A stretch of 64,000 nucleotides of DNA from a bacterium (GTDB lineage Bacteria; Verrucomicrobiota; Verrucomicrobiia; Limisphaerales; UBA11358): assembly GCA_021817945.1 (NCBI GenBank), contig JAKAFL010000016.1:429-64428 (forward strand), read 5' to 3'. The translations under genes were made by a program, and so were the position numbers. This document shows, piece after piece, positions 2,949-52,745 of this stretch. Under the pieces are notes generated by a model, which did no database searches, was not told the origin of the DNA, and saw only the letters and a program-made list of their open reading frames with translations. Position 1 is the first letter of the stretch. Each line of letters begins with the position of its first letter.

Positions 2949-2984
2949 GTCCTCCGGTCTCAAGCCAGTGAACGTTTCCTCTTT

Positions 2985-3157
2985 TTAACCCGAAAAACGA
3001 AATTCAAAAGGCGAATCTGCACCAATCTATCGGGCGCAAACTCTATGGAAAAATCTCACCAGACCGCTTCAGGTATGGTTTCGATTTTTCCAAGGAGTTT
3101 CCGCTCCAGGATATTGCCGAATCTTGACCTTTTCCATTCCGCTTTTCAGGTTTAATC
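2985..3157 (-). mobile_element. MITE-like repeat, copy D (inverted relative to copies B and C), about 173 bp with about 30-bp imperfect terminal inverted repeats
   Basis: The left end ttaacccgaaaaacgaaattcaaaagg is the inverted complement of the right end ccttttccattccgcttttcaggtttaa. The reverse complement of the core (ggagcggaaactccttggaaaaatcgaaaccatacctgaagcggtctggtgagatttttccatagag) closely matches the copies at 45999 and 49990. It is intergenic, downstream of ppc. Confidence 0.8.
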
Positions 3158-39899: not shown

Positions 39900-40696
39900 A
39901 GAACGGTTTCTCAGTTTTTTGCGTGGCATTGGCGGCGCTCGGCTTGTCATGGATTGGGTTGGTCCTGGGACCGGTCCTCCAATTGGGCCATGAATCGCTC
40001 ACCACGGTCCTGAATTCCACGGACCCTTACCCCATCCAGCCTGCGGGCGCGGCAACCTTGGGCTTGCAGGTTTACAAAGCCAACGGTTGCGCCGCCTGCC
40101 ACACTGAACAGGTGCAACAGGATGGTGTGGTTTGCAACGTGGTTTTGTCCGCGCCGGGCCTGCACCCGGATGATGTTTCCAATCTCCTCTCCCAGCTTGA
40201 CTTGAATGGTTTGACCGACCAGGAGGCATCCATCGCAGCGGCAAAGATCGCCGCCGTGGGCGGTAAAACGGAAATACGCGTGGCTTCCACGGGTGGTGAC
40301 ATGAATCGTGGGTGGGGCTTGCGCCGCAGCGTCTCCGCTGATTACCTTTACGACCAGCCGGTTCAGTTGGGATCTGTACGCATTGGGCCTGATTTGGCCG
40401 ATATCGGAACCCGCCAGACCGATGCAAAAGCCATTCTGGCCCATTTGTATGCGCCTCAGTCCTGCACTGCGGGTTCGTTGATGCCTTCCTTTAAATTCCT
40501 CTTCGTAACCCGTAAGGTTCAAGGATCACCTTCTCCCGATGCTTTGGCATTGCCGCAGGCATTTGCCCCGCCGGATGGCTTTGAGATTGTACCAACCCAG
40601 GATGCGAAGAATTTAGTGGCATACCTCATGAATCTGCACGTTAATGTGCCCCTTTACGAGGCGCCCTTCACACCCTCTGTCGCCGCAAACAAATGA
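39896..40696 (+). CDS. cbb3-type oxidase subunit II (CcoO)-like monohaem cytochrome c with an internal insertion
   Basis: It has an N-terminal TM helix, the haem motif GCAACHTEQV, and CcoO-like RIGPDLADIGTR and HLYAPQS...GSLMPSF. About 55-60 extra residues lie between the haem motif and the conserved core. Confidence 0.65.
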   Translation: MKNGFSVFCVALAALGLSWIGLVLGPVLQLGHESLTTVLNSTDPYPIQPAGAATLGLQVYKANGCAACHTEQVQQDGVVCNVVLSAPGLHPDDVSNLLSQLDLNGLTDQEASIAAAKIAAVGGKTEIRVASTGGDMNRGWGLRRSVSADYLYDQPVQLGSVRIGPDLADIGTRQTDAKAILAHLYAPQSCTAGSLMPSFKFLFVTRKVQGSPSPDALALPQAFAPPDGFEIVPTQDAKNLVAYLMNLHVNVPLYEAPFTPSVAANK

Positions 40697-41298
40697 AGGA
40701 TCCAGCCCAGTCATCAACTGATCACCAGGAAAACCCACCCTCGGCTTCGGTTTCCACCGTGCCGCTCTGGATATTTGCCCTGACGCTGCTCCTCATTTTT
40801 CTGGGCACCGTTTATTTTGACCACCACAGCGGATGGTTCAATCCGCAGATTTACTCCCCATTTGAAAATGAAGCCCAGTTGGAGGCATACCAGCCCAAGT
40901 CAGGCTCGGCGGCGATGATCGCCCGGGGCAAGCAGGTTTACGAGCAAATCTGCGGCATTTGCCACGGCGTGGATGGCATGGGTAAGCCGGGTCAGGCTCC
41001 GCCCTTGGCTGGCTCGGAGTGGGTGAATGCTTCCAGCTACAACCGGCTGGCTCATATTCCTTTGATGGGCGTCAATGGCGATATCACGGTTGAAGGAAAA
41101 GATTGGAACATGGCCATGGCTGCCATGGGCGCATCTCTCAGCGATGCCGACCTGGCGGCGGTTCTGAGTTATATTCGGAATTCCTGGGGCAATAAAAGCG
41201 CCATGGTCACCCCGGAAGATGTGGCTGGGGTGCGTGCGGCAATTGGGAAAAACCCAGTTCCGATGTCTGCGCAACAGTTGGAGAAAATGCCCCAATAA
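40693..41298 (+). CDS. Membrane-anchored class I monohaem cytochrome c (CcoP-like or electron donor)
   Basis: It has a TM anchor (VPLWIFALTLLLIFLGTVYF) and a single CGICHGVDGMG motif, with a LSYIRNSWGN tail typical of class I c-type domains. Confidence 0.75.
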   Translation: MKDPAQSSTDHQENPPSASVSTVPLWIFALTLLLIFLGTVYFDHHSGWFNPQIYSPFENEAQLEAYQPKSGSAAMIARGKQVYEQICGICHGVDGMGKPGQAPPLAGSEWVNASSYNRLAHIPLMGVNGDITVEGKDWNMAMAAMGASLSDADLAAVLSYIRNSWGNKSAMVTPEDVAGVRAAIGKNPVPMSAQQLEKMPQ

Positions 41299-44029: not shown

Positions 44030-44097
44030 TTCAACCCCAAAAGCAAAATGGAAACGGTCAAGATGCGGAGCGAAATCTCTTTGGAAAAATCGAAATT
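44030..44097 (+). repeat. Truncated copy (A) of the MITE-like repeat family
   Basis: ttcaaccccaaaagcaaaatggaaacggtcaagatgcgg-agcgaaatctctttggaaaaatcgaaa matches the left TIR and left core of the copies at 45999 and 49990, with an 11-nt deletion. Similarity is lost after about 70 nt. Confidence 0.6.
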
Positions 44098-45998: not shown

Positions 45999-46181
45999 TT
46001 GAACCCGAAAAGCGAAATGGAAAAGGTCAAGATAAGGCAAGATACGGCAAGATGATGAAGCGGAAATCCTTTTGAAAAATCGAAACCATACCCGAAGCGG
46101 TCTGGTGAAACTTTTCCAACGAGTTTGCGCCCAGTGGATTGGCGCAGACTGTCCCTTGGAATTCGTTTTTCGGGCTTTAAC
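45999..46181 (+). mobile_element. MITE-like repeat, copy B (about 183 bp)
   Basis: The left TIR is ttgaacccgaaaagcgaaatggaaaagg. The right end ccttggaattcgtttttcgggctttaac is its imperfect inverted complement. The core cgaaaccatacccgaagcggtctggtga is shared with copies C and D. A roughly 10-nt internal duplication (aaggcaagat) is present. Confidence 0.8.
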
Positions 46182-46581
46182 GGATGCAGAACCGCAATTT
46201 GATTTCCTGATTGTTGACGATGGGTCTGGCGGTGAGTTTGTTCAGTCGTTTCACCAGACTGCGAGCTTTGGATTGGAGCAGGGAACCGTCGGCCCTTGTG
46301 GGTTGGGTTTCCCTGAGAAAGACGTTGGTCACTGAACGGTCCGCTTCTGTGATCAGCCAAAAACGCACCCCTGCCTGGTTGTGGTAAACAGACAACACCC
46401 GGCGCCCCATGGCCACGCCCTTGTCATTTTCTTCCCGGTCTTCAGGCCCGAGGTCTCCCCAATCACCCTGGCAATGCGCATCCAATGCCAGCTGGATATC
46501 CCTTGCCGTGAGAAGTTTCAGGGCTGCCGGAGCAATGACGATCCGGCCTGGTGCAAATTTGGCTTGCAGGGTGGTTGACAT
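46177..46581 (-). CDS. Small conserved hypothetical protein (GDWG...ITEADRS family, often plasmid/ICE-borne) with an apparent C-terminal extension
   Basis: The region GRIVIAPAALKLL...HCQGDWGDLGPEDREENDKGVAMGRRVLSVYHNQAGVRFWLITEADRSVTNVFL matches a small-protein family that, as I recall it, ends shortly after ...TTxLLPEEY. Here the frame continues for about 41 more codons, and the stop codon lies inside the MITE TIR. Confidence 0.5.
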   Translation of the reverse strand: MSTTLQAKFAPGRIVIAPAALKLLTARDIQLALDAHCQGDWGDLGPEDREENDKGVAMGRRVLSVYHNQAGVRFWLITEADRSVTNVFLRETQPTRADGSLLQSKARSLVKRLNKLTARPIVNNQEIKLRFCIR

Positions 46582-49989: not shown

Positions 49990-50438
49990 TTGAACCCGAA
50001 ATGCGAAATGGAAAGGGTCAATGTGCGGCAAGATGCTGGAGCGGAAACTCTTTGGGAAGATCGAAACCATACCCGAAGCGATCTGGTGAGATTTTTCCAT
50101 AGAGCCTGTTTTAAAATTCGGAAGGATGCTGGTTTCGTGCCCAAGCCAGTCTGGCTAGGCGCGCTGAGGGAGCATACACCACGTGGGTCTGGGACCGAGG
50201 AGCAACAACGCCAGACCGGCTTGGGCGCGAAAACCCTCCGGGCAACGGCGCTTTTTCCATTGGGTTTTGTTGTCGCCGTCGTTACAGCCCGCCACGGGGA
50301 TGCGCCGCCAGCTCCGCCTCGCCCAAGACCAAAATCTCCAGTCGCAGCATCCTTCCCAATTTTAAGACGGGATCTCAGTGTTTGAGCTCGCTAGATTGGG
50401 GCAGATTGCCCTTTTCTATTTCGTTTTTCGGGTTTAAC
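49990..50438 (+). mobile_element. MITE-like repeat, copy C, interrupted by a nested insertion (about 449 bp in total)
   Basis: The left TIR is ttgaacccgaaatgcgaaatggaaaggg. The right end cccttttctatttcgtttttcgggtttaac is inverted. Both flanking halves are collinear with copies B and D. The two halves are separated by about 270 extra bp at 50105-50371. Confidence 0.8.
50105..50371. mobile_element. Second, nested inverted-repeat element inside MITE copy C
   Basis: Its termini are cctgttttaaaattcggaagg (50105-50125) and ccttcccaattttaagacggg (50351-50371). These are inverted complements with 3 mismatches over 21 nt. The segment is absent from the otherwise collinear copies B and D. Confidence 0.6.
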
Positions 50439-50521
50439 AGGGAGCAGCGGAGTATTTGAATTCCACTGTAAAAATCCAAGCCCGAGTTAAAAAATGGATG
50501 AAGGGCGGATATTCTCGGTCC

Positions 50522-50890: not shown

Positions 50891-51166
50891 TTAGCCTCCT
50901 GCAATAGCGGGAATGATGCTGATTTCATCGCCCTCTTTGAGGGCAGTTTCGCGGTTTTCCTTGAAACGGATGTCCTCTTCGTTCACGTAGATGTTCACGA
51001 AGCGCCGGACTTCACCTTTTTCATCCAGGAGCCTTTCCTGGATTCCTGGAAAGCGTGTTTGCAATTCCAGGATGGCCTGGCCCACGGTGAGGGCGTTGAC
51101 TTCAATTAATTCCTCATTGTTGGTCAATTTGCGCAAGGGCGTGGGTATTCTTACTTTTTTTGGCAT
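50891..51166 (-). CDS. MoaD/ThiS-family sulfur carrier protein (CysO/MetO-like)
   Basis: It is 91 aa with a beta-grasp-like pattern and ends exactly in ...IIPAIAGG. The free C-terminal Gly-Gly is the site needed for thiocarboxylation. Confidence 0.75.
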   Translation of the reverse strand: MPKKVRIPTPLRKLTNNEELIEVNALTVGQAILELQTRFPGIQERLLDEKGEVRRFVNIYVNEEDIRFKENRETALKEGDEISIIPAIAGG

Positions 51167-51230: not shown

Positions 51231-52487
51231 TCAAGCCCGGGCGGATTCCTCCTGGGTGAGGAGGGCTTCAAATTCACGCAGGCTGGGTTTGATTTCACGG
51301 GGTTTTCCGCAATGGCCGGACACGGCATCAAGTGTCTTAAGCCCATTGCCGGTAATGCAGATCACGGCGGAATCCTCTTTGGGAATCTTGCCGCACTCAA
51401 TCAACTTTTTGGCCGCGCCCAGGGTTACGCCTCCGGCTGTTTCGGCAAAAATGCCCTCGGTTTCGGCCAGCAGCCGTATGGCATCGCGAATTTCATCGTC
51501 ATTCACGTCCTCGGCGGCGGCATTGGTTTCGCGCATGACCTTCAACGCATAAAAGCCATCGGCGGGAGTTCCGATCGCCAGTGATTTGGCGATGGTGTCC
51601 GGCTTGACGGGTTTGAAGAAATCAAGGCCGGCTTTTTGGGCGGTCGAGATGGGGGAACAACCGGTTGCCTGTGCTCCGTAAACCTTGGGATGGGATTCCG
51701 GTATCAGTCCCACTTTGACCAGTTCCTGGTAGCCCTTGTGGATTTTGGTGAGCAGGGAGCCGGAGGCCATGGGTATGATGGTGTGCTGTGGCGCTTTCCA
51801 GCCCAGTTGCTCTGCGATTTCGTAAGCCATGCTCTTGCTGCCCTCCGCATAGTAGGGCCTCATGTTGACGTTCACAAATGCCCAGCCAAACTTGCCAGCA
51901 ATCTCCGCGCACAGACGGTTGACTTCGTCATAATGGCCCCTGATGCCAATCACGCTGGCACCGTAGATAAGGGAGTTTAGAATTTTACCCTGTTCCAGGT
52001 CGGATGGGATGAATACATATGACTTCAGACCTGCACTGGCGGCGTTGGCAGCCACGGAATTGGCCAGGTTGCCGGTGGAGGCGCAGGCCACGGTTTCAAA
52101 ACCCAGTTCCTTGGCGCGGCTCAAGGCAACGCTGACGACCCGGTCCTTGAAAGAAAGCGTGGGGTAATTTACCGCGTCATTCTTGATCCACAATTCACGG
52201 ATTCCGAGCCGCCGTGCAAGACGGTCTGCCTTGATCAGGGGCGTGAAACCCACCTGCCTGCCCACGGTGGGTTCTTTTTCGATGGGCAGGAGTTCTCGGT
52301 AACGCCACATGGAGGCGGGCCGCGATTCGATGGCCGCGCGGGTCAGGGATTTTTTAATGCGGTCATAATCGTAGGCCACCTCAAGGGGGCCAAAATCAAA
52401 TTCACACACATGAGTGGCCGCCAACGGATATTCCCGCCCGCATTCGCGGCACTTGAGTGCCTTCATGTACCGGTGTTGTTCGCTCAT
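51231..52487 (-). CDS. thrC: Threonine synthase family PLP enzyme (ThrC-like; candidate O-phosphohomoserine-dependent homocysteine synthase, MetM-like)
   Basis: An N-terminal zinc-ribbon-like CRECGREY...HVC is present. The PLP-lysine region is YPTLSFKDR, and the body belongs to the ThrC family (GNLANSVAA, ASGSLLTK). It is preceded by a SAM-I riboswitch. Confidence 0.8.
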   Translation of the reverse strand: MSEQHRYMKALKCRECGREYPLAATHVCEFDFGPLEVAYDYDRIKKSLTRAAIESRPASMWRYRELLPIEKEPTVGRQVGFTPLIKADRLARRLGIRELWIKNDAVNYPTLSFKDRVVSVALSRAKELGFETVACASTGNLANSVAANAASAGLKSYVFIPSDLEQGKILNSLIYGASVIGIRGHYDEVNRLCAEIAGKFGWAFVNVNMRPYYAEGSKSMAYEIAEQLGWKAPQHTIIPMASGSLLTKIHKGYQELVKVGLIPESHPKVYGAQATGCSPISTAQKAGLDFFKPVKPDTIAKSLAIGTPADGFYALKVMRETNAAAEDVNDDEIRDAIRLLAETEGIFAETAGGVTLGAAKKLIECGKIPKEDSAVICITGNGLKTLDAVSGHCGKPREIKPSLREFEALLTQEESARA

Positions 52488-52624: not shown

Positions 52625-52745
52625 TTCTCATTTTTCCCGGGCTAATGGCGCCCAAGCTGGATTTGGCACCTGACATTGATACCTGAAATCAATCGGTTGC
52701 CGTGGCGTCACAGGGCCAGTCCCTCGACCACTCGTCATGAGTCCG
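52625..52745 (-). promoter_or_regulatory. SAM-I (S-box) riboswitch aptamer
   Basis: The minus strand reads CTCATGACGAGTGGTCGAGGGACTGGCCCTGTGACGCCACGGCAACC...CAGGTGCCAAATCCAGC...GGGAAAAATGAG. It contains the hallmark S-box blocks GAGGGA-TGGCCC, GCAACC and GGTGC-AAATCC, and the P1 pairing CTCAT/ATGAG. Confidence 0.85.

Follow-up and report, generated by a model that had tools for sequence, protein, structure and literature searches.

The sequence analysed here, referred to throughout as the window, is a 64,000-nt stretch (C77:429-64428) of G000, a Limisphaerales MAG of 3.755 Mb in 99 contigs with a G+C content of 54.9%. Four loci in this window had been predicted, from the letters alone, to be copies of one MITE-like repeat, and alignment of the four makes their homology clear. 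The repeat family is termed MITE-1 in what follows, and its members in the window, together with a second element nested in one of them, are located as follows:

2984..3155, reverse strand: copy D, with a core at 2989-3150 (162 bp)
44030..44097, forward strand: copy A, TTCAA at 44030-44034 followed by a truncated core at 44035-~44097
45999..46179, forward strand: copy C, TTGAA at 45999-46003 followed by a core at 46004-46174 (171 bp)
49990..50101, forward strand: left part of copy B, TTGAA (49990-49994) plus model positions 1-~120
50102..50374, forward strand: second MITE nested in copy B, ~273 bp, with ends GAGCCTGTTTTAAAATTCGGAAGGATGCTG / CAGCATCCTTCCCAATTTTAAGACGGGATC
50375..50437, forward strand: right part of copy B, model positions ~117-180, ending in ...TTTTTCGGG at 50432

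Copy D, which lies in the opposite orientation as predicted, is situated between the gene for PEP carboxylase and the ORF that follows it and is bounded by a perfect TTTAA/TTTAA duplication (2984-2988 and 3151-3155). The truncation ascribed to copy A is likewise borne out, this decayed copy being reduced to a fragment of the left arm that covers model positions 3-82 and has lost 11 bp internally. The core of copy C holds an internal 10-bp tandem duplication, CAAGATNNGG, and its right flank, CTTTA, is unlike the TTGAA on its left, so that the target duplication has been lost. A 134-aa ORF without a Pfam match (46177-46581, reverse strand) runs into this copy, the stop codon falling in the right end of the element. 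Copy B is not truncated: the repeat finder places its right end at 50377-50440, and the copy extends from 49995 to 50432, split by the nested second element, with TTTAA (50433-50437) as its right flank. Beyond copy B, and all on the reverse strand, lie a gene for a ThiS-family sulfur carrier (50891-51166), preceded by one for a PLP-dependent enzyme (51231-52487), which carries a short NinF-like motif at its N terminus, and, upstream of the enzyme gene, a SAM riboswitch (Rfam RF00162, 72.7 bits, 52625-52743); this riboswitch-led gene pair looks like a SAM-regulated, sulfur-carrier-dependent route of Cys/Met biosynthesis. The window contains no transposase that we could find, in agreement with the original prediction.

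A census of G000, conducted with BLAST and then with an nhmmer profile built from the near-full-length matches, returned 417 strand-specific hits, which reduce to 265 non-overlapping loci once both-strand duplicates are removed. These ~265 loci, 106 of them full length, make up 0.78% of G000, a number far beyond chance, and are dispersed over many of its 99 contigs in otherwise unrelated flanks. A genome-wide search could have left only the local copies, and it has instead revealed a dispersed family that also shows insertion polymorphism. The MITE-1 core is 162 bp long, to which 5-bp duplications are added, rather than the unit of about 175 bp first proposed; it is a non-coding, imperfect palindrome with ends CCCGAAAAGCGAAAT / ATTTCGTTTTTCGGG, and the consensus, taken in one orientation per locus, reads CCCGAAAAGCGAAATGGAAAGGGTCAAGATGCGGCAAGATGCTGGAGCGGAAACTCTTTGGAAAAATCGAAACCATACCCGAAGCGGTCTGGTGAGATTTTTCCAAAGAGTTTGCGCCCAGTAGATTGGGGCAGATTGGCCTTTTGAATTTCGTTTTTCGGG. 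Terminal inverted repeats are indeed present at both ends, but the extent of about 30 bp assigned to them does not hold, since the palindrome takes in the whole element, with 65 predicted pairs in the oriented consensus broken by regular 2-nt mismatches. Individual copies are on average 91.4% identical to the consensus (range 81-99%) and 85% identical to each other, with no identical pairs.

The 162-bp core accounts for the large majority of copies in G000, the remainder being mini forms, composites and fragments. The mini forms are of two types, measure 78-79 bp and occupy ~25 loci, with identical internal-deletion breakpoints and TTNAA flanks, whereas the ~10 composites, of ~420-480 bp, carry a second MITE nested at the same model position. 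No conserved ORF is found in MITE-1, and the indels that separate its 78-79-bp and 171-bp variants do not come in multiples of 3, as expected of the non-coding element originally described; its length also falls within the range of bacterial MITEs (under ~600 bp). A full-length copy at C34:16951-17122 corresponds, at the orthologous site of a close relative (L047; G109:C358:~1467-1561), to a mini copy of ~95 bp, a comparison which suggests that mini forms arise by internal deletion in situ. The distribution of MITE-1 over the genome is uneven. The overlap of the copies with crude ORFs is 26%, against 87% of coding sequence genome-wide, which indicates that coding sequence is avoided, and 75 of 176 copies lie between convergent genes, a location that represents ~21% of the background. 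Both the avoidance and the enrichment fit an accumulation at tolerated insertion sites.

The TTAA- or TTGA-like contexts noticed around the copies can be sharpened into a 5-bp target-site duplication, MITE-1 being flanked on both sides by T-T-N-A-A. Of 96 copies, 63 have the same central base on the left and on the right (shuffle mean 25, maximum 39), and 9 have complementary ones. The duplicated 5-mer is perfect in 32 of them, compared with a mean of 8.5 and a maximum of 19 after shuffling, and in 70 it shows no more than one mismatch. Moreover, non-palindromic pentamers occur in direct repeat (TAGAA/TAGAA, TTTTA/TTTTA, ATAAG/ATGAG, TCTGG/TCTAG), and hence all five positions belong to the duplication and not to the inverted repeat.

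Comparison with 'Limisphaerales bacterium clean1975', a close relative represented among our genomes by G097 and G109, which are the same genome, adds evidence of insertion differences. This genome aligns to G000 at ~93-97% identity and harbours the MITE-1 family, some copies being common to both. Three sites filled in clean1975 are empty in G000 (L014/C89, L037/C13 and L040/C37), where one pentamer is found at each, and the converse applies to copy D, filled in G000 and empty in G109 (C139:~2998), whose flanks abut at a single TTAAA-like pentamer. There are thus four filled/empty orthologous sites between G000 and a relative of ~95% identity, with the proviso that precise excision would look the same as insertion. 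The region of copy A is collinear with G109 at ~90% identity. At the site of copy C, the TTGAA and the CGGGCTTTAAC are both present in G109, where they enclose an unrelated sequence of ~190 bp, and at copy B synteny with contig C35 of G109 stops exactly at the TTGAA. These two copies lie at homology break points, and the elements therefore coincide also with points of rearrangement; the breaks could reflect deletion or rearrangement associated with the element.

Outside this pair of genomes, the MITE-1 family is absent from the other sampled members of the genus (~71-74% identity in the PEP carboxylase gene) except for one distant congener, which carries two copies of ~71-73% identity, one of them, at 71%, with a perfect TTTAA duplication. 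The MITE-1 terminus is more widely shared. A terminus scan over one genome per species yielded matches in Limisphaerales / Verrucomicrobia subdivision 3, and of 162 other genomes of the genus, 31 contain the terminal 15-mer CCCGAAAANCGAAAT, while a reversed-pattern control gave ~0. In these genomes the 15-mer bounds elements of 65-390 bp that have unrelated interiors and TTNAA flanks. The combination of one terminus with many unrelated interiors is characteristic of a single transposase that acts on many MITE lineages.

A candidate for such a transposase is provided by the IS1380 family, of which transposases were detected in 90 of 163 genomes of the genus. The top-scoring IS1380 clades (L080-L099) were considered as parents and set aside, as they lack the MITE-1 terminus; the MITE-type terminus appears only in a lower-scoring clade. 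In two genomes (G159 and G172) this clade is represented by elements of 1,529-1,530 bp whose ends read CCCGAACTCCGAA(A/G)T and which are flanked by TTNAA, and across sister species and metagenomes it comprises ISs of ~1.53 kb with one ORF and termini CCCGAA(CT/AA)CCGAA(A/G)T, CCCGAACTCCGAAAT... The 473-aa transposase matches NF033539 (IS1380) with 226 and 208 bits, above the cut-off of 180, and PF13701 with 102 bits. Perfect 5-bp duplications surround the IS in G017 (TTGAA/TTGAA) and G136 (TTTAA/TTTAA). A metagenome scan recovered 80 IS loci, 61 of them with both ends and an element length of 1,500-1,545 bp, and the flanks of these 61 copies conform to T71% T94% N A95% A72%, 16 of them having a perfect duplication and 41 one with no more than a single mismatch. 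The metagenomes contain, in addition, a second IS clade whose ends, CCCGAAAACCGAAGT, agree with the MITE-1 termini in 14 of 15 bases.

Over the first 15 nt, the best IS termini share 12-14 positions with MITE-1, and the length of the duplication and the TTNAA target are the same. Similarity extends further inwards in one IS copy, whose transposase-proximal end matches 35 of 45 bases of the MITE-1 left arm (on average 23 and at most 31 in shuffles); taken over all ISs, it is modest in the 25 subterminal bases (mean of 15.4 matches versus 13.8 in shuffled sequences). The search for an autonomous partner has hence yielded related IS1380 elements, but no autonomous IS with termini identical to those of MITE-1 was recovered from the genomes of the genus or the metagenomes, and neither G000 nor its close relative contains an intact transposase of the IS clade, an absence that constitutes weak evidence, all the genomes compared being MAGs. 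A profile search of G000 with PF13701 gave no match. G000 does preserve a truncated IS1380-family relic (C75:40320-40687, within the stretch 40320-40760; L141 1868-1947), in which codons 1-103 are 65% identical to the transposase gene of the IS clade and are preceded by the end CCCGAACTCAGAAGCAGAGAAAAAAGGTCAC, located 5 bp downstream of tRNA-Gly(TCC).

Several pairs of MITE-type ends were inspected as possible autonomous copies and rejected. In G000, those lying 1.5 kb (C55) and 2.6 kb (C63) apart either surround ordinary genes (MFS transporter, GNAT) or are devoid of a long ORF, and a pair 1670 bp apart in G100 (L061) encloses only a response-regulator ORF. Tyrosine recombinases encoded near a MITE terminus in this same congener (L062, G100:C81) were also discarded as mobilisers, not being linked to the end. 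They are the products of two adjacent, overlapping genes (448 and 400 aa; L062 1036-3308) that lie ~700 bp from the terminus and may constitute a recombinase-in-trio-type element.

Taken together, these results lead us to propose that MITE-1 is a non-autonomous DNA transposon most likely derived from an IS1380-family IS, a reading to which we assign a probability of roughly 0.8 and which agrees with the mobile nature initially attributed to the repeat, as supported by the dispersed loci, the duplication, the filled and empty sites and the IS1380 relatives with matching termini. The ends of MITE-1 (CCCGAAAA[G/A]CGAAAT...) would act as transposase-binding terminal inverted repeats, both of which would be bound by an IS1380-family DDE transposase supplied in trans by an autonomous IS of ~1.53 kb with near-identical termini. 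Insertion at TTNAA through a 5-bp staggered cut, followed by repair, would then generate the TTNAA...TTNAA duplication. In this manner the element was probably amplified to ~265 loci, mostly intergenic and especially between convergent genes, while shorter deletion derivatives presumably arose from it and spread too, and MITE-1 itself was hit by a second, IS5/IS1031-type MITE. Present-day copies appear to decay neutrally. Mobilisation by a transposase of the IS1380 clade is what the shared termini and target suggest, and the source IS has presumably been lost from the G000 MAG or left unassembled in it. The MITE-1 family is fairly ordinary selfish DNA.

Among the alternatives, mobilisation by a transposase of another family (IS5, IS1634 or an unknown DDE type), with a likeness to IS1380 termini that is convergent or too weak, seems to us unlikely. 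G000 does encode IS5/IS1031-like and IS1634-like transposases, no intact IS1380-clade gene was found in it and the subterminal similarity to the ends of the clade is modest; nonetheless, the IS5-like ends (CTAAGAGCCTGTCTG...) are unrelated to MITE-1 and fit the nested MITE instead, and the IS1634-like gene on C91 has neither a CCCG end nor matching ends, whereas the IS1380 clade agrees with MITE-1 in terminus (CCCGAA..CGAA.T), in target (TTNAA) and in the 5 bp that are duplicated. The same duplication speaks against a REPIN-like hairpin repeat spread on single-stranded hairpins by a Y1 transposase (RAYT or IS200-IS605 type), a reading that we consider very improbable in spite of the long hairpin into which MITE-1 folds, since the 5-bp duplication is clear and Y1 transposition leaves none. 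Five Y1_Tnp matches do exist in G000, four of them less than 5 kb from a copy, but the genes are not bracketed by MITE-1: the nearest copies, at 456-4698 bp, are found to a single side of each gene, and 36% would be expected to have a copy within 5 kb by chance. These matches, of IS200/IS605 or RAYT type, include C71:70414-70749, C27:878-1114, C2:8-250 and C51:2-163. Equally hard to credit is a repeat dispersed solely by recombination, gene conversion or segmental duplication, of which TTNAA would simply be a part. Copies B and C sit exactly where the sequence of the relative diverges, and one pair of copies (C1:938 and C65:71585) has common flanks; yet flanks are otherwise unrelated, the pentamer has a central base that differs from copy to copy but agrees within a copy, and a single pentamer is kept at empty sites.

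The hairpin also underlies the proposal that the copies are structured non-coding RNA genes or cis-regulatory hairpins kept by selection on RNA structure; a hairpin RNA had been put forward as an equal possibility in the original prediction. The folding itself is substantiated, RNA folding of copy C giving -58.7 kcal/mol (z = -3.5), and the enrichment between convergent genes might be read in the same sense, but the notion of an RNA family finds no support and is, in our estimation, extremely improbable. When 3' partners were permuted among the 106 copies, the column-shuffled alignments kept 0.9040 +/- 0.0011 of the consensus pairs, compared with 0.9041 in the real ones, and double changes are still paired in only 24 of 63 cases. 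Pairing thus equals the shuffle expectation, which implies that the two arms mutate independently and that the family is not one of structured RNAs. A gathering search of the whole window against Rfam matched only the SAM riboswitch, a permissive E-value search with copy B alone gave just weak miRNA-like matches inside the nested element, and a scan of copy C found no promoter or terminator consensus. Furthermore, copies occur in truncated and interrupted forms and differ between closely related genomes.

The classic bacterial MITE is the Correia (or NEMIS) element of Neisseria, of about 100-160 bp, with TIRs, a long hairpin, hundreds of intergenic copies and internal-deletion subtypes, which duplicates TA (2 bp) and for which we know of no resident transposase. 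MITE-1 resembles it in size class, TIRs, hairpin potential, copy number, deletion subtypes and the lack of a known resident transposase, and departs from what is described for Correia in its 5-bp TTNAA duplication, its phylum and its candidate parent IS family. The REPIN/RAYT and ERIC/BIME-type repeats are likewise dispersed, intergenic, imperfect palindromes, but they have neither target duplications nor IS-like termini, both of which are present in MITE-1. A parallel in target choice is the eukaryotic piggyBac, whose termini begin CCC...GGG and whose site is also a T/A palindrome (TTAA as opposed to TTNAA), even though MITE-1 has a duplication of 5 bp instead of 4 and a prokaryotic host. Termini that begin with CC, as those of the related ISs do, are a trait of the IS1380 family. 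Compared with members of this family such as ISEcp1, IS1247 and ISPme1, the related ISs have the expected ~1.5 kb, single ORF and NF033539/PF13701 matches, and a 5-bp duplication as in ISEcp1 (PMC2887853), whereas MITE-1 is a 162-bp non-coding derivative and the IS clade found here has a strict TTNAA target.

The IS1380 family is the prokaryotic counterpart of piggyBac (PMC5718144), the target of which is TTAA, and the clade described here could therefore preserve an ancestral, piggyBac-like target recognition. With the piggyBac profile PF13843, the IS-clade transposase gives no match at E<=0.01, nor does G000 as a whole, the control genomes being equally without a match. The clade with a TTNAA target occurs widely in Limisphaerales as well as in metagenomes from peat, soil and lakes. 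One may tentatively go further and envisage a first recognised superfamily of IS1380-derived MITEs, in which one TTNAA-strict clade with CCCG...CGGG termini would have repeatedly spawned MITEs of unrelated interior across the genus, although we hold this to be doubtful on present data. Neither a 2024 review of prokaryotic MITEs (PMC10969869) nor non-exhaustive full-text literature searches yielded an IS1380-derived MITE.

That one IS1380 clade has a sequence-specific target, TTNAA, bears on the proposed relationship between IS1380 and piggyBac; if the wider reading is true, the clade could also provide a compact bacterial transposase specific for TTNAA. In more immediate terms, the results connect the IS1380 family with a Verrucomicrobial MITE of high copy number. 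For annotation, MITE-1 explains ~0.8% of G000 and many contig breaks, and the intergenic DNA that it marks should be taken neither for genes nor for regulatory RNAs. Since its insertions differ between genomes of ~95% identity, it can serve to tell strains of these uncultured bacteria apart.

The second MITE that splits copy B has its own 31-nt inverted repeats and is found at ~45 loci in G000, with many independent occurrences in G109; its position of insertion in copy B is shared with ~8 other MITE-1 copies. Its ends (GAGCCTGT...) resemble the TIR of an IS5/IS1031-group IS of G000, which measures ~0.93 kb, has 22-nt TIRs CTAAGAGCCTGTCTGAAAAATC and is present in two copies with PF01609 transposases:

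G000:C14:9348-9812 (L008): IS5/IS1031-group IS, PF01609 transposase
G000:C3:1974-2351 (L009): IS5/IS1031-group IS, PF01609 transposase

On the resemblance of these ends, this IS is likely to be the parent type of the nested MITE. A further transposase in G000, on contig C91 (52677-53543; L010 1255-3039), is a single protein of 594 aa with a DDE_Tnp_1 (PF01609) match, judged to be IS1634-like by its N-terminal sequence; no inverted termini were recognised at this gene, and a motif, GGTCTGCACTACA, recurs near both ends in direct orientation.
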